A stretch of 62,912 bases of DNA from Candidatus Thorarchaeota archaeon (lineage in GTDB: Archaea; Asgardarchaeota; Lokiarchaeia; Sigyniarchaeales; SOKP01), in assembly GCA_048883105.1 (NCBI GenBank), contig JBHLQY010000001.1, positions 1-62,912 of the forward strand. The letters run 5' to 3'. The position numbers and the translations under genes were made by a program. Every line of letters starts with the position of its first letter. Position 1 is the first letter of the stretch. Positions 37,338 through 51,837 of the stretch are shown piece after piece. The notes beneath the pieces are model-generated. The model was not told where the DNA came from and did no database searches. It saw only the letters and a list, made by a program, of their open reading frames with translations.

Positions 37338-37438
37338 TCAAGATTAGAGATTACTTAAGAATAATAGAATAATAAAATTTAATAGATAAAATTGCGTTTC
37401 AACTATTAAATAAGAAAAATAAAAGATTGAATTGCCTT

Positions 37439-38770
37439 ATGCCAAAAGATGGTGAAGAAGACGATAAATCAATCGTAGACGCTCTTTCTGCTCTAGGATG
37501 GGTCGAAGAAAAAGAAGAAGGCGAAGAGCCCACAGAATTAGAAGAGGACCTTCAAACTCAACTTAATTTCTTTAAAGAACAATATAAACAATTAACTGAA
37601 GACATAAAAAAGCTTGCAAGAGAAAAAGATGAGTTGATGAAAGAGAAAAACGAATTGTCAAGAGAAAATGAACAACTATTACAAATGACTCTAGGCGAAA
37701 AAAGTAAGAGCGATGACGTACAAGTTGATATTGAATCTTTAAAAGAAAAAGATCAAATTATTGCTGATAAGGATCGAATTATAGATGAATTAGAAACGAA
37801 AATTCAAGATATGACTGAAAAAATCGATAGTCGTGGACATCAGATTGCGGCAGTCCAAGAATTAAAAGATATTATAGCTCAAAAAGACGTAGAGATTGAA
37901 GAAAAACAAGATTATATGCATCAACTATATTCTACAGTCAGTGAGAAAAATTTCGAAATTGAAGAGAAAACTCAAGAGATGCAGGAGATGAATAATAAAG
38001 TTAAAGATTTAGAAGAGAAATTATCCCATTACGAAGATTTAACTCCAATTATAGAGGAACAAAATCAAAAAATCAAAGATTTAGTATCTCAAATTGACAA
38101 ACAGAAAATTGAACTCGAGAACTTACAGGAAAAGGATAATAAAATAAAAGAATTAGAAGAGCAAATTCAGTATCTAGAAAATGAGATGAAACTTGATACA
38201 GTAAAAAAATCAAAATATGAAAAAATTAGATTGCTTGTAGAAAAAAAAGACGAAATTATAACAGAAAAGGAAAAAGCGATTTTTGAAGCTGAAAATTCCT
38301 TAAAATTAACCAATCAAAAAATTAATGATTTAGCACAACAATTAGAAACTTTTAATCTTGTTAAAAAAGATTTGGAGAAAAAAGAAGAACGCATTAAAAC
38401 ATTAGTAATTGAAATTGAAGAAAAAATTCAAAAAGAGCTTGCGAATAAAGAAACAATTAAAAATCTTGAAGAAAAACTTGAAAAGGCTCAAAAATCTAGT
38501 GCTAAATATGAAATACAATTTAATAATAATGTGAATCTACTACAAGAAAAAGAAACAGAGTTAAAGAATTTAAATGTTAAAATTAAAGAATTAAATAATA
38601 AATTAACTGAAGGAGAAAAAATCGAAGATAAGCTTTTAAACGATATCCAGAAGATTAAAGATGATAAATTAAAGCTTGAATCAGAGCTGGAAAAAAAGAA
38701 TGCGGAATTAGTAGAACTAAAGAAAAAGATAAAATTAATGCGTAGAGAAATATCAAAATCTAAAAAATAG
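37439..38770 (+). CDS. E/K-rich coiled-coil protein (~443 aa)
   Basis: The ORF is almost uninterrupted heptad-like E/K/L/I sequence. It has an acidic N-terminus and a basic C-terminus (KKKIKLMRREISKSKK). I prefer the ATG at 37439. Confidence 0.55.
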   Translation: MPKDGEEDDKSIVDALSALGWVEEKEEGEEPTELEEDLQTQLNFFKEQYKQLTEDIKKLAREKDELMKEKNELSRENEQLLQMTLGEKSKSDDVQVDIESLKEKDQIIADKDRIIDELETKIQDMTEKIDSRGHQIAAVQELKDIIAQKDVEIEEKQDYMHQLYSTVSEKNFEIEEKTQEMQEMNNKVKDLEEKLSHYEDLTPIIEEQNQKIKDLVSQIDKQKIELENLQEKDNKIKELEEQIQYLENEMKLDTVKKSKYEKIRLLVEKKDEIITEKEKAIFEAENSLKLTNQKINDLAQQLETFNLVKKDLEKKEERIKTLVIEIEEKIQKELANKETIKNLEEKLEKAQKSSAKYEIQFNNNVNLLQEKETELKNLNVKIKELNNKLTEGEKIEDKLLNDIQKIKDDKLKLESELEKKNAELVELKKKIKLMRREISKSKK

Positions 38771-43064: not shown

Positions 43065-46000
43065 ATGATATTTTATTTACCTTGGTTACCAGATTTTTCA
43101 TATTTTGAGCATAAGATAAAAAGTCCATTTAATCTAGATAAGACTTTTAGTTTTTTAAAGCGAAAAATTAGTGATAATGAAATTTTTGAGTCAAATGAAT
43201 ATCTCTTCTGGATCCTTATCTTATTATCTCATATTAACAAATTAGATTTAGTAGATGAAAAAGCAATCAAAAAATACATCTCAGGGTTAAAATATCACAA
43301 AGGTGGATATAAATTTTCAGACAAATTTGAGGAACCTGATATATGGAGTACTTTTTATTGTATAGCTACCTTGAAATTATTAGAACTTGACGATCTTATA
43401 GAAGATGATGATATAGAATTCATTAAGAACTCTCAAAGTCTTGGATCTGGAGGTGATGGCGGATTCTTTCATTGCAGCGCTAGAAACTGTTATATTAATT
43501 GTGATAGAAAAACTTCCGTGAAATCTAGTTTTTTTGCGCTTTCAACTTTAAAATTATTAGAGAAATTAGATGAAATTGACAGAGCACAATTAATTAAGTA
43601 CCTGAAGAAAAGTACTTTAAATAATATAGATTTAATTTATCAAATTTTAAGCCTAAAAATTTTAAACGAGATAGACAATATTATTTTAGAGAAACAAATT
43701 CCAATTATTCTCTCATGGCAAAAATTAAGAAGTGGATTTGCGATTGAAAGTAAAGTCCCTTCAATCGAAAATAATTTTTGGCCACTAATTTGTCTCGAGT
43801 TATTAAAGAAATTAGATTTAATTGATTTTGGAGGAGTACTTGGCTTTATAAGATCCATGGAAGACGTTGATGGTGGGTTCACAGATCAATATACCAGTCT
43901 TAGTAAAAATGTACCAAACATACGGAGTACCGCCCAAGCTCTTCTTTGTATACTTTTTATTTGGAAAAGACTTATTGAATTCATTGAAAATGAAATTCTT
44001 ATCCAATTAAAAGACTCGTCTGAAATCGATTTGATTCTTATTAGCGATAAATTTTCAATACCGGTGAAATTCGTAAAGGAAATTGCAAATTGGATGATAA
44101 AAAACGAATGGATTAATGGAGAAATATTCAATAGAAAAAAAAAATTTAATAGTTATTTTGATAAGCAGAATGCGATTACTCAAGAAATTATTAATGAAAT
44201 TATGGGAATTTTCAAAAATAAGCCAGGACAAAAGAGACTTAATTTGAATGAATTTAGTAAAAGTTTCGACTTTTCTAATGCATTAGAACGAGTAAAATTG
44301 GTGGTTAATGATTTAATTATTAATAAATTTTTAATAGGTAATATAGTAACACAAAAAAGAGAAACCTTTCTTGATAATTTTTTAGTCCTTGGAGAATATA
44401 TTCGTCTTACTAAGCCTCTTACTACTTATGTTGAAATAATGGATGAGAAAAAAAGGTTGGAAGATGCAAAAAGTAGTTTATTAAATATCCACACAAAATT
44501 AACTAATTTTTTACGAAAAAGTTCAGTTGAGTTAAAAATACTTATTGATCAAGAAAAAATTTCTGATACAAAAAAGAAATTACACGATAATTGTGAATAC
44601 GTTGACACTCAAATTCAAAAATACGAGAAGCTAATAAATCAAATTAATTCTGATCATATCTTTGTTAATTCTAAATTATTAAATCTCAAATTTGATAGAT
44701 ATTGGCCTATCATTAAAAGTTCTATTGAGAAATGCTTTTCAACATTTAAATCAGAAATAGATGAAAAAATCAAGAAAAAAGAAGAATTTATTACTGAACG
44801 GCTTGAAAAAGCTAGAAATCAAGAAGCAATTAAATCAGTAGAGAAAATTTTACATGATATTGAAATAGAATTAATTCAATATGGTGTTCAAATAAAGGAT
44901 TTCTTCCAAAAGAATTATACAAATCACGGAAGAGTGCTCTCACTAATTAAAACCATATCAGATTATATTAAGAAATCAGATTCTAAAATAAGATCAAACA
45001 TTTCAAAGAAATCCAAGATTATTAAATTCGATGAATTTAAAAAAGAACTCGATGAATTAAAAATCTCGTGGACGAAAAGACGTGAAGAATCAAAAAAAGT
45101 TATTCAATTTTATCAAAATATAATTAATAAACGAGAAGAATTAGAAAAATATATTGCTGATAACGTTTCCCTTCTTCAAAAATTTTCTGATGAGATAAAT
45201 GAACAAATCTCCAGTTTGGTAAAAAAGAATGAAATAAAAGAAGCTTCCAATATTTTATATAAGAGTATCAAGGAATTCCCCGAAATCTCCTCAAATAAAA
45301 ATGAAATTTTCTATGTCTCTGTAGATCAGATAAATCAAGAAATTTCTGAATTTCCAAAATTTTCTTCTGATATTAAAGCAGTTTGGAATAAAAAATTAGA
45401 AGATCAGAAAAGTAAATGGGTTAATGTTACATTAGCATTAAAAGAAAAACTCTATTTAGGGAGGGAATCTGATAAAAAAGATGAATTGGAACAAGATTTA
45501 AAAGATAATATCGGGGATATTAAAAATTCTATTGAAAATATGAAAAAAGCTACACATGAATTAATTAAAAAGAAATATATAACTGATGCTGAAAACAAAA
45601 CCCGTGAAACTTATATAAAAATAACTAAAAAAATAGATAAGTACAATCAAAAATTTAAAGATTTTATTAAAACATCCACCACTGAATTTATATCATTTAG
45701 AGAAACAGTGAAAGATTTAGTCGAAAATTGGGAAAAAGAAAAGATTAATTTAATCATACTTTTAAATAAAGCTAGAAACGAATTACTAAATGAGATAGAA
45801 AACACTAGCTCCACAGAAAAAAAGGGAGAATTGCAAGCATTAATTAAAACTTATGCATCTAACTTAGAAACCAATATAAATCAATTAAAATCGAATTATA
45901 ATCAATTTATTCAATCTGGGAAAAGCTTAAGTGAGTTTGAATCTAAATTACAAGCAGAAATCTTTAAAGTAAGAGATTCTTTAAAATTAATTGATAATCA

Positions 46001-46805
46001 AATAAAAAGTTTTATTAAAAAGGGTTCTCGAAATTACGAATCATTTCACGAAATAATTGAAGAAGAATTAGAATTATGGAATAATTCTAAATTATCAATA
46101 GAAAAAAAATTTGAAGCGGTCATTAATTGGATTAAAGAAGATATATTCATTAATAAACTTCAATTCTTCGTCAAAGCATTCAAGGATAATAAAGTTAGCA
46201 TTAATTACTTATCTAAAGTGCTGAATATGAAGTTAGAACCTTTAAAAATGAAATTAATTACGTTAATTTCAAATTCAAAGCTTAAAGGAAAATTAGATTC
46301 CAATGCTGATATGTTTATATTAGATGAAGAGCTCGCTCCCAAGGAATTTTCAGGTAAAGGAATAAAAGGTGAAGAGAAAAAAGAAGAAATGGATCCTATC
46401 AAACGAGATATTCTAAGCTTGCGCTATATAATCGTTATTCAAAATAAAATGGGTGCTTCAGTGTTTAATAGAAAATTAGGTGAATGGTATATGGATTCCG
46501 AACTTATTGGAGGATTTTTGACAGCTATACAAGATTTTAGTTCAGAAATTAAGCAAAAGAAAATTCCAATGAAGAGGATGGAATATAGAGATTTTGAAAT
46601 TATTTTAGAACAGGGTAAGTATACTTTTTCTGCATTATTTATTGATGGAGAAGAGACAGACTGGCTCCGTAGTAAATTACAGTTATTTGTAGAAGAATTC
46701 GAAAAAGTCCACGAAAAAAGCCTTAAACATTGGAAAGGTGAACTTGGGTCTTTTAGAGATTCTAGTTATTTAATTGATAAAGTTTTTGAATTATATCGTT
46801 TATGA
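43065..46805 (+). CDS. Giant multidomain protein (1246 aa): prenyltransferase/terpene-cyclase-type alpha-alpha toroid repeats + winged-helix modules + long coiled coil + C-terminal longin/roadblock-like domain
   Basis: About five N-terminal repeats have the form L..yi...Q...GGF......pd....T..al..L.ll..ld. Examples are ISGLKYHKGGYKFS..PDIWSTFYCIATLKLLELDD, IKNSQSLGSGGDGGFFHCS...SSFFALSTLKLLEKLD and IRSMEDVDGGFTDQY...RSTAQALLCIL. wH-like segments follow, then ~650 aa of coiled coil. The last 131 aa (RYIIVIQNKMGASVFNRKLG...LIGGFLTAIQDFSSEI....MKRMEYRDFEIILEQGKYTFSALFIDGEE...RSKLQLFVEEFEK) have a longin-like pattern. Confidence 0.6.
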   Translation: MIFYLPWLPDFSYFEHKIKSPFNLDKTFSFLKRKISDNEIFESNEYLFWILILLSHINKLDLVDEKAIKKYISGLKYHKGGYKFSDKFEEPDIWSTFYCIATLKLLELDDLIEDDDIEFIKNSQSLGSGGDGGFFHCSARNCYINCDRKTSVKSSFFALSTLKLLEKLDEIDRAQLIKYLKKSTLNNIDLIYQILSLKILNEIDNIILEKQIPIILSWQKLRSGFAIESKVPSIENNFWPLICLELLKKLDLIDFGGVLGFIRSMEDVDGGFTDQYTSLSKNVPNIRSTAQALLCILFIWKRLIEFIENEILIQLKDSSEIDLILISDKFSIPVKFVKEIANWMIKNEWINGEIFNRKKKFNSYFDKQNAITQEIINEIMGIFKNKPGQKRLNLNEFSKSFDFSNALERVKLVVNDLIINKFLIGNIVTQKRETFLDNFLVLGEYIRLTKPLTTYVEIMDEKKRLEDAKSSLLNIHTKLTNFLRKSSVELKILIDQEKISDTKKKLHDNCEYVDTQIQKYEKLINQINSDHIFVNSKLLNLKFDRYWPIIKSSIEKCFSTFKSEIDEKIKKKEEFITERLEKARNQEAIKSVEKILHDIEIELIQYGVQIKDFFQKNYTNHGRVLSLIKTISDYIKKSDSKIRSNISKKSKIIKFDEFKKELDELKISWTKRREESKKVIQFYQNIINKREELEKYIADNVSLLQKFSDEINEQISSLVKKNEIKEASNILYKSIKEFPEISSNKNEIFYVSVDQINQEISEFPKFSSDIKAVWNKKLEDQKSKWVNVTLALKEKLYLGRESDKKDELEQDLKDNIGDIKNSIENMKKATHELIKKKYITDAENKTRETYIKITKKIDKYNQKFKDFIKTSTTEFISFRETVKDLVENWEKEKINLIILLNKARNELLNEIENTSSTEKKGELQALIKTYASNLETNINQLKSNYNQFIQSGKSLSEFESKLQAEIFKVRDSLKLIDNQIKSFIKKGSRNYESFHEIIEEELELWNNSKLSIEKKFEAVINWIKEDIFINKLQFFVKAFKDNKVSINYLSKVLNMKLEPLKMKLITLISNSKLKGKLDSNADMFILDEELAPKEFSGKGIKGEEKKEEMDPIKRDILSLRYIIVIQNKMGASVFNRKLGEWYMDSELIGGFLTAIQDFSSEIKQKKIPMKRMEYRDFEIILEQGKYTFSALFIDGEETDWLRSKLQLFVEEFEKVHEKSLKHWKGELGSFRDSSYLIDKVFELYRL

Positions 46806-46980
46806 GGTATCAAAATTTTTAATTATTGCTTTTTTAAGAGAAATAAGAAATACCTCAAATAAAAGAGAACAAATATATTAGTGCTTTTGAAATCTTAACC
46901 TTTCTTTTATAAAGCAAAAAGGATTTATGATATTTATTATAACTATTCTTTAAGAAAATAAGAAAATTTTGTGGAATTTC

Positions 46981-48237
46981 ATGACAATTGAGGATTTGAT
47001 GAAAAAAATTGGAGAAAAGGCTCGAAATGCTGCATTTTTTTTAAAAAACGCTTCAACAACTTCAAAAAATAACGCTTTATTTCGAATGGCTAACGATTTA
47101 GAAAAACAATCAGAAAAAATAATCGAAGTTAATAAAAAAGACTTAGAACACGCTAAAAAAAACAGATTAGAGCAATTAAAATTAGACAGGCTTGTCCTAA
47201 ATTCTGATAAAATTCATAAGATCGCAGAGGGATTAAGGGAAGTTGCAGCCCAACCAGATCCAATTAATGAGATCGTATCTATGAGGAGAGCGCCAAATGG
47301 GATGGATGTAGGCTTGATAAAAGTTCCATTGGGCGTAATTGGCATTATATATGAATCACGACCAAATGTTACTGCCGATGCAGCTGGACTATGTTTAAAA
47401 GCTGGTAATGCTATAATATTACGTGGAGGGCGTGAAGCAATAAATTCCAATATTCTAATTGCAGATATTCTGCACGGAGCAGCAGTTAAAGAAGGTCTTC
47501 CAGAAAATTGCATTCAAATTATAAGAGATACAAATAGGGAATATGTAGGGGAGATGTTAAAATTAAAAGATTACATTGATGTAATAATTCCAAGAGGTGG
47601 GGAATCCTTAATTCAGAGGGTAATTCAAAATTCAACTGTACCGACTATAGAAACTGGGATCGGAGTAGTTAGTATTTTCGTAAATTACGACGCAGATTTT
47701 GATATGGCTAAAAAATTAATTATTAATTCCAAATGTTCTTATCCTGCAGTATGTAATGCTTTAGATAAAATACTCGTTCACGAGAAAATTCAAGAAAAAT
47801 TTATTCCATTTATTGTTGACGTGTTAATTGAAAATGGGGTTGAAGTTAGAGGCTGTGAAACAACTCAAAAATTAGTAACAAATGTCATTTCCGCCACTGA
47901 AAAAGATTGGAGTACAGAATACTTATCTTTAAAAGTGTGTATCCGAGTTGTTAAAGATATTGATGAGGCTATAGAACTTATTACTAAATACGATTCAAAA
48001 CACACAGAATCAATAATTACAGAGAATTATGATGAGGCAAGGAAATTTTTATATGAAATAGATGCCGCTGCTGTTTACGTGAATGCCGCCACGCGATTAA
48101 CTGATGGAGGTGTCTTTGGCCTAGGCGCTGAGATTGGTATTTCAACACAAAAGCTACATGCTAGGGGACCTATGGGAGTTAATCAATTAATTACAACAAA
48201 ATATATCATTTACGGTAGTGGACAAATTAGAGAATAG
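46981..48237 (+). CDS. proA: Gamma-glutamyl phosphate reductase
   Basis: The aldehyde-dehydrogenase-fold ProA motifs are present: PLGVIGIIYESRPNVTADAAGLCLKAGNAIILRGG, IPRGG..LI, CNALDKILVH, HTESIIT, YVNAATRLTDG. I prefer the ATG at 46981. Confidence 0.9.
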   Translation: MTIEDLMKKIGEKARNAAFFLKNASTTSKNNALFRMANDLEKQSEKIIEVNKKDLEHAKKNRLEQLKLDRLVLNSDKIHKIAEGLREVAAQPDPINEIVSMRRAPNGMDVGLIKVPLGVIGIIYESRPNVTADAAGLCLKAGNAIILRGGREAINSNILIADILHGAAVKEGLPENCIQIIRDTNREYVGEMLKLKDYIDVIIPRGGESLIQRVIQNSTVPTIETGIGVVSIFVNYDADFDMAKKLIINSKCSYPAVCNALDKILVHEKIQEKFIPFIVDVLIENGVEVRGCETTQKLVTNVISATEKDWSTEYLSLKVCIRVVKDIDEAIELITKYDSKHTESIITENYDEARKFLYEIDAAAVYVNAATRLTDGGVFGLGAEIGISTQKLHARGPMGVNQLITTKYIIYGSGQIRE

Positions 48238-49028: not shown

Positions 49029-51104
49029 TTAATCTTCCTTATACATGTCTTCTTGATCACTGTAAATGCCTGCGTTTGGATCGAGAAATTGGTTTTGACA
49101 TGCAGGACAGGAGTTATATTTTGATAACCAAAATGCTACGCAGAGATAATGATAAACTGCTTCACAGAAAGGACATTTTATTATCTGTTCTTTTGCGAAA
49201 TCAAATTTTTTATGGCAAACTCCACATTTTATTTTGTCTGAGGTGATCCCTTCTCTAACTTTTACTCTCTCAGATAGAGTTATCTCTAAATTAGTTAATT
49301 CTGTTCGGTATAGATCTATTTCATTACTTAAATTCTTAACTCTTGATTTAATTTCAGTTATTCTCTCGTTTAATTCCTCTTCTGTTAATTTATCGAATAA
49401 AAAGGTTGATAACGCAAAATTTAATGGCATTGCATCAGTTGTATCCTTTTGGTCCGTGATTTCTGTTATGCGTTCAAGCATTAGATCTTCTTCCTCAATT
49501 AGCTCCTTAAAATTTTTAAATAACTTATTAAGTATCATAGACAATAAAAAGGTTAATTGCTGTTTTTTAAAATTGAAGTTATCTTCCCATTGCTTAATAA
49601 TTTGATAAATATCAATGTCCTTTTCTTTATATAAATCTATTTTTTTATAAACATCATTCTTAATTTTCTTAACACTAGATTTATACTTACTAAGAATTTC
49701 ACGAATTTGTTTTAATTGAGGAAATTCTTCCCGTACTATTAAAGCTGTTTCATCTTGATATTTACTCATTAAATCATTGACTTCCGAAATCTTTTCATAA
49801 ATAAAATTCCTTACATGATCACGTAATCGTTCTTTTCTAACTGATTTTAGATAATATAAATACTCTTCTTTCCTTCGTGTTATTTCAGTAAGAACATTAT
49901 CAATAATTTTTTCATATGAACTTGTTATTTCCCCATACGGTTCCAAAGAAGATTCAAAATCTCCGAAATGACGATTTAATTCCTCTACTAACGAATAAAA
50001 GATATCCACTTTTTCAGAATAATACTTAATGACATTTTTAAACTCGTCGTACTCTTTCAAATCGCTAATTGTAGCGTGATATTTCTTTTCTAAACCACTT
50101 AAGTAATAATCTGCTATTTGGGGTAAATATACGCTAACTTTTTGTTCTAAAACAGTTTTTAAATTTATTTTCTTTTTATCCTCTTCTAATGTAAAATTCT
50201 TATCTAGCTCATTTATTTCATCTAAAATTGCCTTTAATTTATTCTCAATTAGAGATTTAATAATTGGATGAATAAATTTTTTTAATTTCTGAATAATTTC
50301 TTTTCTATCTACAATATTTACGTATTCATCGATATCCTCAACCTCTTTAACTTCTTCAATTAGAGTGTTCTGAAATAGAAGAAAAATTAAATCAGAATAA
50401 ATCTCAATTTTCCCGTCTTGTTTTTTGTTATAAAACTGATATATATCAGCAAAATATAATGTTAAATATACTCCCTTTTTTTTCTTTTTCTTCTTTTTAA
50501 TAACCTCTCGATTAGAATCTTCAATGAAATCGTAAAGTTCCTTTATTTCATTCCATTTTGTCAACGCACTTGGAAACTCGTTAATCTTTAAGTTTAAATT
50601 TTTGATTTTATTTGCTTCAATCCAAATATACGAAATATTATCATAAAGACCCTCATACTTATATTGAGATTTCTCAAGTTCTGAATAAAGTTCATTAAAT
50701 TCATCAATAAGACTTTGAATTGTTATTAAAAACTCATCTAAAAATGAATTTTGTTTCAAAAGTCTCTTAATATTTCGACAATTTAATTTTAGATTTAGTA
50801 AATTATTTGAATAGAGTTTAATTTCTTTTAAAATTCCTGATTTTAAATTATGAAAATTATTTTTTTCAGAATTGTCTTTAGGTGTTAAATATATGTCAGT
50901 GAAATCTCTTATTTCTTCAAAATAATTTGAGTAATAATTGAGAATTTCTCTTTGGAATTTTGTCTTTAAAAAGTCATCAATCTCAGGTGAATCTGGCTTT
51001 TCTATCTTAAGTTTTTCTATATTTCTTTTAATATCTAATATATCTTCCTTAGAAAATCCTTTTATTTCCCGAACATCATTAAAAACATTATCAGTTAATT
51101 TCAA
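49029..51104 (-). CDS. 691-aa helical/coiled-coil protein with a C-terminal C4HC3 RING/PHD-like zinc finger
   Basis: The C-terminus reads CGVCHKKFDFAKEQIIKCPFCEAVYHYLCVAFWLSKYNSCPACQ, which is C-x2-C-x13-C-x2-C-x4-H-x2-C-x10-C-x2-C. The H..C...WL.....CP.C tail is typical of RING-type E3 fingers. The rest is helical, with a K8 run. Confidence 0.65.
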   Translation of the reverse strand: MKLTDNVFNDVREIKGFSKEDILDIKRNIEKLKIEKPDSPEIDDFLKTKFQREILNYYSNYFEEIRDFTDIYLTPKDNSEKNNFHNLKSGILKEIKLYSNNLLNLKLNCRNIKRLLKQNSFLDEFLITIQSLIDEFNELYSELEKSQYKYEGLYDNISYIWIEANKIKNLNLKINEFPSALTKWNEIKELYDFIEDSNREVIKKKKKKKKGVYLTLYFADIYQFYNKKQDGKIEIYSDLIFLLFQNTLIEEVKEVEDIDEYVNIVDRKEIIQKLKKFIHPIIKSLIENKLKAILDEINELDKNFTLEEDKKKINLKTVLEQKVSVYLPQIADYYLSGLEKKYHATISDLKEYDEFKNVIKYYSEKVDIFYSLVEELNRHFGDFESSLEPYGEITSSYEKIIDNVLTEITRRKEEYLYYLKSVRKERLRDHVRNFIYEKISEVNDLMSKYQDETALIVREEFPQLKQIREILSKYKSSVKKIKNDVYKKIDLYKEKDIDIYQIIKQWEDNFNFKKQQLTFLLSMILNKLFKNFKELIEEEDLMLERITEITDQKDTTDAMPLNFALSTFLFDKLTEEELNERITEIKSRVKNLSNEIDLYRTELTNLEITLSERVKVREGITSDKIKCGVCHKKFDFAKEQIIKCPFCEAVYHYLCVAFWLSKYNSCPACQNQFLDPNAGIYSDQEDMYKED

Positions 51105-51219: not shown

Positions 51220-51837
51220 TTATTCCCCAAGTTCTTTAATTTCAATGTGTTTTTCTTTGGCTCCGTCTTTTGTTATCGTTAAAATATCAATCCCATCCCC
51301 AGACATTGCATCTCTTGCTATGGCTACTCTAATTGCTTTTTCTACTAATGCTTCACCCGCTTCAACACTTATATCAGGTTTATATTCTGCTTCAAGGATT
51401 CCTATTGATAGCAGCATTCCTGTTCCAGCAGTACCATAATCGTCCGGCATTAACGAACCAATTGCGTCGAGTGTGTAGAGTTTAGGACCGTCTTTATCCA
51501 TTCCCGCAATTACTAAATTGGTATATAGTGGAAACATTTTTCGTGAATATAAATAATTTGAAACTAATTTCCCCATACTTTTTGTTGATATCCTCTCCCC
51601 AGCATCTAATAAATATAAATTAGCTTGTGCTTTCATAATCTTTACTAAAATTTGCCAGTCTCCTATAAGACCATACGCAGCTAAGCCAATATTATCTGTT
51701 ATCTTAAATAATTTTCTTGTTGATTTGTTTGCTACTGTATATCCCCACGTTGCTCGATTATCGTTGCCAAGGACAACTCCATCTAGACATTTAATTGCTA
51801 CTCCACATGCACCAGGTACAATAATTTGCTGTGCCAT
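51220..51837 (-). CDS. psmB: Proteasome beta-type subunit lacking the catalytic Thr1
   Basis: The 205-aa ORF aligns position by position to the archaeal beta subunit: PG-ACGVAIKCLDGVVLGNDNRAT... versus TG-TTTVGITLKDAVIMATERRVT.... Asp17 and Lys33 equivalents are present (GNDNR; TRKLF), but Thr1-Thr2 are replaced by Ala-Cys. Confidence 0.8.
   Translation of the reverse strand: MAQQIIVPGACGVAIKCLDGVVLGNDNRATWGYTVANKSTRKLFKITDNIGLAAYGLIGDWQILVKIMKAQANLYLLDAGERISTKSMGKLVSNYLYSRKMFPLYTNLVIAGMDKDGPKLYTLDAIGSLMPDDYGTAGTGMLLSIGILEAEYKPDISVEAGEALVEKAIRVAIARDAMSGDGIDILTITKDGAKEKHIEIKELGE

Follow-up and report, generated by a model that had tools for sequence, protein, structure and literature searches.

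The stretch of DNA considered here, 62,912 nucleotides from a Candidatus Thorarchaeota archaeon (contig JBHLQY010000001.1, positions 1 to 62,912 of the forward strand; hereafter the window), contains a gene for a 1246-residue protein that is real and conserved and is restricted to Asgard archaea of the Loki, Hel and related types. The protein is built from known kinds of parts in a new combination, in which an N-terminal toroid of the protein-prenyltransferase beta family is followed by winged helices, a rod of helical repeats, a further winged helix and a C-terminal domain that probably has a longin-type fold. The analysis establishes the folds of the head and of the winged helices, the loss of catalytic residues from the toroid, the repeats of the rod, and the size and partners of the family to which the C-terminal domain belongs. 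From these we infer that the protein acts as a large non-catalytic scaffold, a reading to which we assign a probability of roughly 0.5; an earlier reading of the letters alone (the original prediction) had also taken the molecule for a scaffold or tether, and this fits the domain anatomy that is set out in the following list.

43065..46805, plus strand: complete open reading frame (ORF) of 1246 amino acids (aa) plus stop, with an ATG start, uninterrupted
43065..44015, plus strand: aa 1-317, alpha/alpha toroid of 12 helices, protein-prenyltransferase beta type, closest to RabGGTase beta, zinc triad absent
43470..43502, plus strand: aa 136-146, H-C-x4-C-x3-C motif, invariant, a putative structural zinc knuckle
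44016..44414, plus strand: aa 318-450, small winged-helix-like module (318-357) and canonical winged helix (358-448), from the AlphaFold2 (AF2) model
44415..46109, plus strand: aa 451-1015, helical rod of five tandem repeats of ~115 aa, from profile self-comparison
46110..46334, plus strand: aa 1016-1090, PCI-type winged helix, from Pfam PF01399
46335..46418, plus strand: aa 1091-1118, linker, charged and poorly conserved, with a short conserved helix at its end
46419..46802, plus strand: aa 1119-1246, C-terminal domain, the most conserved part, probably a longin-type alpha/beta fold

Among 5.8 billion proteins searched there are 24 homologs with 38-91% identity. The majority of them are full length (1227-1368 aa), and those that carry a source name all come from Asgard metagenome-assembled genomes (MAGs) of the Hod-, Hel-, Loki-, Hermod- or Promethearchaeota, in agreement with the Asgard origin suggested earlier. 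When one genome per GTDB species was scanned, about 10 Asgard MAGs were found to have full-length or near-full-length copies, and the same scan gave no copies beyond Asgard or unclassified uncultured-archaeon MAGs. With the inclusion of P0027, a distant full-length ortholog at 27% identity, the common architecture is seen at full length in more than 20 homologs, which come from independent Asgard assemblies and range from 27 to 91% identity. The ORF N-terminus is kept in the homologs, in which W7 and P9 are nearly invariant or invariant, and the G+C content around the ORF (25-30%) is the same as in the remainder of the window. The possibility raised by the original prediction that assembly or gene calling had fused unrelated genes is rejected as extremely improbable: the uninterrupted ORF recurs in many independent NCBI, JGI, ENA and Logan assemblies, conservation runs unbroken across every domain junction, and no point in support of an artefact was found. 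Because of these independent full-length homologs and this continuous conservation, we regard the ORF as a real conserved gene and not a chimera.

The toroid and its lost active site

The assignment of the first 317 residues to the prenyltransferase-type toroid, which the original prediction had made from motifs that are indeed present in the ORF translation, is borne out by sequence and by predicted structure. Pfam PF00432 (prenyltransferase alpha-alpha toroid) matches the whole protein at 58 bits and its first 320 aa at 65.6 bits, against a cutoff of 26.5. For aa 1-470, AF2 run on the family alignment gives a model with a mean predicted local distance difference test score (pLDDT) of 90.3 and a predicted template modelling score (pTM) of 0.87, in which twelve helices are followed by winged-helix elements. 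When this toroid is compared with the PDB using Foldseek, the beta chains of RabGGTase and GGTase-III are at the top of the list (E 1e-9, template modelling score (TM) 0.70 on the target, ~300 columns, 18-20% identity), followed by GGTase-I beta and FTase beta, with terpene cyclases and the complement thioester domain far lower. The toroid family profile gives the same order in the PDB (RabGGTase beta 72 bits, E 4e-19; GGTase-I beta 34 bits; FTase beta 23 bits) and finds no cyclase there at E<=1, and hhalign aligns the family with rat RabGGTase beta over 294 columns at a probability of 98.2 and an E value of 4e-13. The homology of the toroid with the protein-prenyltransferase beta family is genuine at the level of sequence, and the nearest solved structure is RabGGTase beta. 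When the toroid alone was used in a word-indexed search, the only additions were fragments and one stand-alone toroid, 26% identical.

The extreme N-terminus, aa 1-23 (43065-43133), is a highly conserved aromatic peptide (MxFxLxWIPEFSYFExKIKNPFNL) that is without regular secondary structure in the AF2 model, where it nonetheless has a pLDDT of 68-79; it may pack onto or into the toroid.

Like RabGGTase beta (RABGGTB, which is also the beta chain of GGTase-III), the family has an alpha6/alpha6 toroid whose repeats have GG[FY] loops. On either side of the active-site loop, the Pro and the Trp of RabGGTB are kept as the invariant P232 and W239, of which W239 aligns with Trp244, and the aromatic motifs of the inner helices are retained. 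The active site itself, however, is not. For this comparison 25 family sequences were aligned by hhalign to a sequence that we take to be that of rat RabGGTB, and whose active-site loop segment agrees with PDB chain segments; H190, R232, K235 and Y241 are taken as the diphosphate ligands. In the 25 sequences the RabGGTB residues correspond to the following.

Asp238, zinc ligand: Ser or Thr
Cys240, zinc ligand: variable (Glu, Asp, Lys, Asn and others)
His290, zinc ligand: Ser, Asn, Thr or Asp
His190, diphosphate: Asp, Asn, Glu or Gln
Arg232, diphosphate: Ile or Ser
Tyr241, diphosphate: variable
Lys235, diphosphate: kept in 15 of the 25

The Asp/Cys/His zinc triad that the original prediction had suggested looking for is therefore absent from all 25 sequences, and most of the diphosphate ligands are also lost. 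Further differences from RabGGTase beta are the deletion of the GGF loop of toroid repeat 4, an 8-residue insertion in repeat 3, and the fusion of the toroid to ~930 more residues with no evident alpha subunit. Since the triad fails throughout and the diphosphate ligands have mostly gone, the toroid is not a canonical prenyltransferase; judged by its residues it is best described as a catalytically disabled, pseudoenzyme-type relative of prenyltransferase beta, and we do not class it as a prenyltransferase.

The insertion in repeat 3 lies in the loop that follows the GGF, and gives rise to the H-C-x4-C-x3-C motif, which is present in 25 of 25 sequences and to which nothing in the aligned RabGGTase beta corresponds. 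In the distant ortholog P0027 it persists as HC-x4-C-x2-C, with zinc-ribbon-like CxxC...CxxC inserts immediately before the loop (aa ~118-205). In zinc sites four protein ligands suggest a structural rather than a catalytic zinc, and because the motif offers four such ligands and zinc-ribbon-like inserts occur at the same spot in P0027, the His-Cys3 loop most likely binds a structural zinc.

Could the protein nevertheless be an active prenyltransferase or other isoprenoid enzyme, in which the catalytic metal site has moved to the His-Cys3 loop and the substrate is recruited by the longin-like domain? The toroid is after all a genuine sequence homolog of RabGGTase beta, the four residues are invariant and lie in a loop that is equivalent, two repeats away, to the Asp/Cys loop of the canonical site, and the conserved inner-helix aromatics include W239. 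We consider such an enzyme unlikely, however, given that the equivalents of the three zinc ligands and of His190, Arg232 and Tyr241 are all absent, that four protein ligands are generally held to mark a structural site, and that one GGF loop of the toroid has been deleted. Moreover, no gene for a PPTA-type alpha subunit is present in the flanks of the window and of six other loci (whole genomes were not searched), the sole hint being one faint match on a 100-aa tetratricopeptide repeat (TPR) protein in one Loki-type locus, L005. Surkont and Pereira-Leal (PMC4915359) found beta-like folds in archaea, with inconclusive results; the archaeal Rab-like proteins that they describe are without C-terminal cysteines.

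Winged helices and the helical rod

The winged helices that the original prediction saw between the two ends of the protein are recovered as winged-helix secondary-structure patterns in both AF2 models. The two modules that follow the toroid (aa 318-450) are modelled with pLDDT >90, and the second of them, at about aa 380-427, scores 20.5 bits against the PCI family, just under the cutoff of 22. It contains the best-conserved stretch of the N-terminal half of the protein (aa 401-425, conservation 0.83), which coincides with the recognition-helix region, helix 3. The third winged helix, beyond the rod, passes that cutoff, with 32.9 bits for PF01399 (PCI) over aa 1020-1086; its pLDDT is 80-91 in a second AF2 model that spans aa 991-1246, and Foldseek matches it to Rpn6, eIF3e and COP9 signalosome (CSN) subunits. 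The likeness to the PCI subunits of the proteasome lid, the COP9 signalosome and eIF3 thus extends to the winged-helix subdomain by both profile and fold, whereas the TPR-like solenoid that precedes it in those subunits is not identified here, the winged helix being preceded instead by the last helix of the rod, and no lid-like set of partners is known for the Asgard protein.

Between the second and third winged helices lie ~565 residues (aa 451-1015) that are almost purely helical, with 11 Pro and Gly residues and no transmembrane segment. The original prediction described this part as a coiled coil of ~650 aa, of which the long helical region stands, while the length and the nature do not. 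Self-comparison of the rod by hhalign gives off-diagonal matches with a probability of 98.3 and an E value of 2e-14 at offsets of ~115, 225 and 340, dividing the rod into five repeats with approximate boundaries at aa 451-559, 560-679, 680-795, 796-899 and 900-1015. A Trp that is invariant among six family members stands in register in repeats 2 to 5 (W669, W785, W889 and W1005), and W547 is probably its equivalent in the first repeat. Heptad periodicity is significant only locally, and the discrete repeats are separated by conserved turns; a continuous, golgin-like coiled coil is accordingly rejected. Four homologs of 1355-1368 aa differ by exactly one additional unit of 122 aa and have six repeats, and because the length of the rod changes by whole repeats we favour a role for it as a spacer.

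In its tandem all-helical units of ~105-122 aa, each with one invariant Trp, and in the differing number of units between orthologs, the rod recalls spectrin-type and other three-helix rods. The comparison is one of sequence and not of three-dimensional form, however, and in the PDB and Pfam the repeat profile brought up only weak, generic matches of helical or coiled-coil kind at the level of noise, with nothing over a curated threshold.

The C-terminal domain, its relatives and its fold

The C-terminal domain is the most conserved region of the protein, with 36 invariant columns. Its profile, searched against 1.84 billion cluster representatives at 50% identity, has 3,080 matches at E<=1e-3 and 538 at E<=1e-10, in proteins of 116 to 2774 aa that include stand-alone versions of 141-171 aa. 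Of the best 150 proteins, 147 were analysed for the placement of the domain, which stands at the C-terminus of 63, inside the chain of 77 and at the N-terminus of 7; ten members of the family were looked up, and the six that have a source name are all Asgard. The near-complete Helarchaeota MAG LW55_61 has one full-length gene and at least 7 further genes with the C-terminal domain (L010, L019, L020, L022, L023, L026, L027, L028), indicating a large paralogous expansion of the module within one genome. No Pfam family reaches its threshold on this domain in the query, the orthologs, the relatives or the stand-alone versions.

A Pfam scan of 68 relatives shows how varied the partners of the domain are. 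Winged helix-turn-helix (wHTH) families are prominent (HVO_0163_N 9, HTH_24 7, ArsR 3, HTH_20 3, MarR 2, together with PCI 2), and the others include Big_1 (5), macroglobulin MG4 (3), TPR, NHL, LRR, SNAP and MIT. Because the domain is mobile, is fused to unrelated partners and also occurs alone, we expect it to behave as an adaptor or interaction module; it makes up a very large promiscuous family for which there is no Pfam model, and it appears to serve as a general-purpose adaptor or signalling module.

Some of the relatives have a transmembrane helix just ahead of the domain. P0039 and P0064 are membrane proteins, in which a hydrophobic helix and then basic residues immediately precede the domain, and P0050 and P0055 have signal-like N-termini, P0050 also with an Ig-like (Big_1) region upstream. 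This suggests that in such relatives the domain would be the cytoplasmic adaptor domain of receptor-like proteins.

The wHTH partners bear on a second alternative, according to which the protein is a regulator of the one-component type whose winged helices bind nucleic acid and whose C-terminal domain senses or signals. Besides the fusions to DNA-binding-type wHTH families (HVO_0163_N, HTH_24, ArsR and MarR, in the numbers just given), the high conservation of helix 3 in the second winged helix can be cited for it, and Foldseek also lists the wHTH-plus-effector regulators CapW and HmgR, at low TM. The winged helices of the protein itself, however, match PCI, which is a type found in protein assemblies, rather than any DNA-binding family, and they carry little net charge (+5, +2). 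A toroid of 317 aa with a rod of 565 aa is moreover atypical of transcription factors, and a regulator of this kind seems to us unlikely.

With respect to fold, the original prediction of a longin- or roadblock-like domain at the C-terminus is favoured by the predicted order of elements and by Foldseek, but with a model of low confidence and with no Pfam threshold reached. In the AF2 model of aa 991-1246 the domain has the order beta-beta-alpha-beta-beta-beta-alpha-alpha, which is that of longins (b1-b2-a1-b3-b4-b5-a2-a3), with pLDDT of 40-44 from b1 through a1 and of 51-81 from b3 through a2. Searched with Foldseek, this low-confidence model retrieves a top 50 made up mostly of longin and roadblock proteins (E 4e-3 to 9e-2, probability 0.9-1.0, TM on the target 0.45-0.57), among them AP sigma, Sec22b, Mon1/Ccz1, sedlin, the TRAPP longins, VAMP7, Fuzzy-Inturned, LAMTOR and roadblock proteins. 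At the sequence level, three of 11 orthologs match PF19036 (Fuz_longin_1, the first longin domain of FUZ, MON1 and HPS1), all below its cutoff of 26.1, two of them at 17.3-17.4 bits (E ~0.005) and the third at 13.5 bits (E 0.09); the alignment is colinear and nearly global, running from domain residues 14-113 to profile positions 2-99 of 125. Longin families of Pfam match none of the 31 sequences of an alignment of the query domain and 30 diverse relatives (A5), and profile searches of the PDB with this and another C-terminal alignment (A4) yielded only noise.

Since the predicted order of strands and helices, the Foldseek results and the colinear sub-threshold Fuz/Mon1 matches all favour it, we would give roughly three chances in four to the membership of the modelled domain in the longin/roadblock superfamily. 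In these predicted features it resembles the tri-longin Rab guanine nucleotide exchange factors (GEFs; Mon1, Ccz1, Fuzzy, HPS1) as well as AP sigma, Sec22b and sedlin, with Foldseek probabilities of 0.95-1.0; it differs from them in scoring under every curated threshold, in its low-confidence model and in an extra short N-terminal helix. Among the proteins examined, the Asgard domain has wHTH, TPR, Ig-like or transmembrane partners and not DENN, SNARE or GTPase modules.

Longin-type domains organise GTPase regulation in eukaryotes, and the original prediction linked the protein to small GTPases. The alternative that follows, which overlaps with the scaffold reading, is that of a small-GTPase regulator or effector, with the longin-like domain as a platform of the GEF or GTPase-activating protein (GAP) type for an Asgard Rab-, Arf- or Rag-like GTPase and the toroid acting on the GTPase or on the membrane. 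The probable longin fold is in its favour, as is the identity of the best weak sequence match (the first longin domain of the Mon1/Fuz/HPS1 RabGEFs); across all domains of life, GTPases are bound by dimers of longin or roadblock type (PMC10933270), and Asgard genomes have many small GTPases (bioRxiv 10.1101/2020.10.19.343400). The genomic link itself did not materialise, however: of 13 loci, only 2 have an ORF with GTPase motifs nearby, about the chance level in GTPase-rich genomes, the flanks contain genes of proline or purine biosynthesis, and the Pfam scan of the 68 C-terminal-domain relatives brought up no GTPase domain. As the GTPases of MK-D1 are not operon-linked to longin genes (PMC10933270), missing linkage is weak evidence either way, and we hold a GTPase regulator to be a possible, if less probable, function.

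Proposed role, wider context and gene neighbourhood

In the scaffold reading that we prefer, the head would descend from the protein-prenyltransferase beta family; it has lost the zinc triad and most of the diphosphate ligands required for prenyl transfer and has acquired a His-Cys3 loop, which would hold structural zinc at the edge of what was once the active-site funnel. Instead of catalysing, the head would bind a hydrophobic ligand or a partner protein, for which the toroid would still provide a cavity or rim. The body, with its three winged helices and five (sometimes six) repeats, would hold the head and the C-terminal domain a set distance apart. As longin and roadblock domains do, the longin-like tail would pair with itself or with paralogs, a pairing that we propose because the fold matches are to longin and roadblock proteins that form dimers. 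The paralogous partners would be those carried on wHTH, TPR and membrane-anchored receptor-like proteins, and pairing would link the ligand or partner that is bound by the head to the partners of the tail.

Several points weigh against this reading. The scaffold role is a conclusion drawn from missing features and from anatomy. The His-Cys3 site may serve a non-canonical catalysis, for which the sequence leaves room, and the strong conservation of the recognition-helix region of the second winged helix (aa 401-425) could reflect nucleic-acid binding. The longin call leans on a model with pLDDT of 40-80 and on sub-threshold matches, all of the Foldseek E values being >1e-3, and when the C-terminal domain was compared by hhalign with single sequences of AP2S1, Sec22b, sedlin, LAMTOR2 and DYNLRB1, the scores were no better than those of the controls CheY, thioredoxin, profilin and ubiquitin.

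The original prediction knew of no characterised protein with this domain combination, and the literature searches that we ran found no description of an architecture that joins a toroid to a longin-like domain. Liu et al. (bioRxiv 10.1101/2020.10.19.343400) report 130 Asgard clusters of orthologous genes (asCOGs) of the Roadblock/longin type and find that most multidomain architectures of eukaryotic signature proteins (ESPs) are lineage-specific, and Tran et al. (PMC10933270) describe Asgard roadblock proteins and modelled longin proteins. The term 'prenyl' never occurs in the main text of Liu et al., and the toroid fusion is unmentioned in the main text of either paper. The protein resembles the Roadblock/longin fusions of these studies in drawing on small, promiscuous alpha/beta domains that are expanded in Asgard archaea, and in having an architecture that is unseen in eukaryotes and restricted to a narrow Asgard subset; it differs from them in the fusion to a prenyltransferase-type toroid.

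Dey et al. (PMC4917890) list prenyltransferases as absent from Lokiarchaeum. Asgard archaea of the Loki and Hel types do carry a clear prenyltransferase-beta homolog, albeit one that appears to be catalytically disabled, that has a putative zinc loop and that is fused to a longin-like domain. If phylogeny were to put the toroid beside the eukaryotic beta subunits, this would bear on the origin of the prenylation machinery. One could imagine that the toroid has survived in Asgard archaea as a relative of the protein from which the eukaryotic Rab/Ykt6 geranylgeranyltransferase beta arose, already joined to a longin of the Mon1/Ykt6 style, and that it still binds isoprenoids and helps to attach or hand over lipid anchors by way of its His-Cys3 metal site or a partner; we regard this as a long shot, but if true, part of the protein-prenylation and longin machinery would predate eukaryogenesis.

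The surroundings of the gene in the window include the following.

37427-38770, plus strand: 447-aa coiled-coil-like ORF, no significant Pfam match; a counterpart of similar size at the same position in L003 and L005
38835-39833, minus strand: two-domain gelsolin-repeat protein (PF00626, 98.5 bits), syntenic in the Loki-type loci L003 and L005
41431-41895, plus strand: 154-aa ORF, no significant Pfam match; a counterpart of similar size at the same position in L003 and L005
42017-42808, plus strand: proB (glutamate 5-kinase, 276 bits), directly upstream of the toroid gene
46969-48237, plus strand: proA (glutamate-5-semialdehyde dehydrogenase, 568 bits), directly downstream of the toroid gene
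49029-51104, minus strand: 691-aa protein with a C-terminal RING- or zinc-ribbon-like finger (sub-threshold Pfam)
51220-51837, minus strand: proteasome subunit gene, adjoining the gene for the 691-aa RING-like protein, the pair being conserved in L003

The toroid gene splits proBA, normally an adjacent pair, both in the window and in L005, where proA is likewise directly downstream on the same strand. The proB gene is directly upstream in the other Loki-type loci L003, L005 and L007, with a gap of 15 nt in L007, and co-transcription of the toroid gene with the proline biosynthesis genes is possible. Isopentenyl phosphate kinase (IPK), which would have tied the locus to isoprenoid metabolism, was considered as the identity of the upstream AA_kinase gene and rejected, with 64.6 bits for IPK (cutoff 120) against 276 for proB, and with proA downstream. 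In the Hel-type loci the gene lies between purE and a PfkB kinase gene, among genes of purine biosynthesis. Since no functional neighbourhood is conserved across the family loci examined, the protein probably works independently and not as part of a pathway encoded by an operon.

The pair of RING-like and proteasome genes, seen alongside the winged helix of PCI type, gives a hint of a connection with the proteasome or ubiquitin; the Hel-type loci, however, are without the pair. No tRNA genes or Rfam families were found at threshold in the 63-kb window (1-62912), in which several 2-kb bins have a G+C content of ~0.36 against a background of ~0.29.

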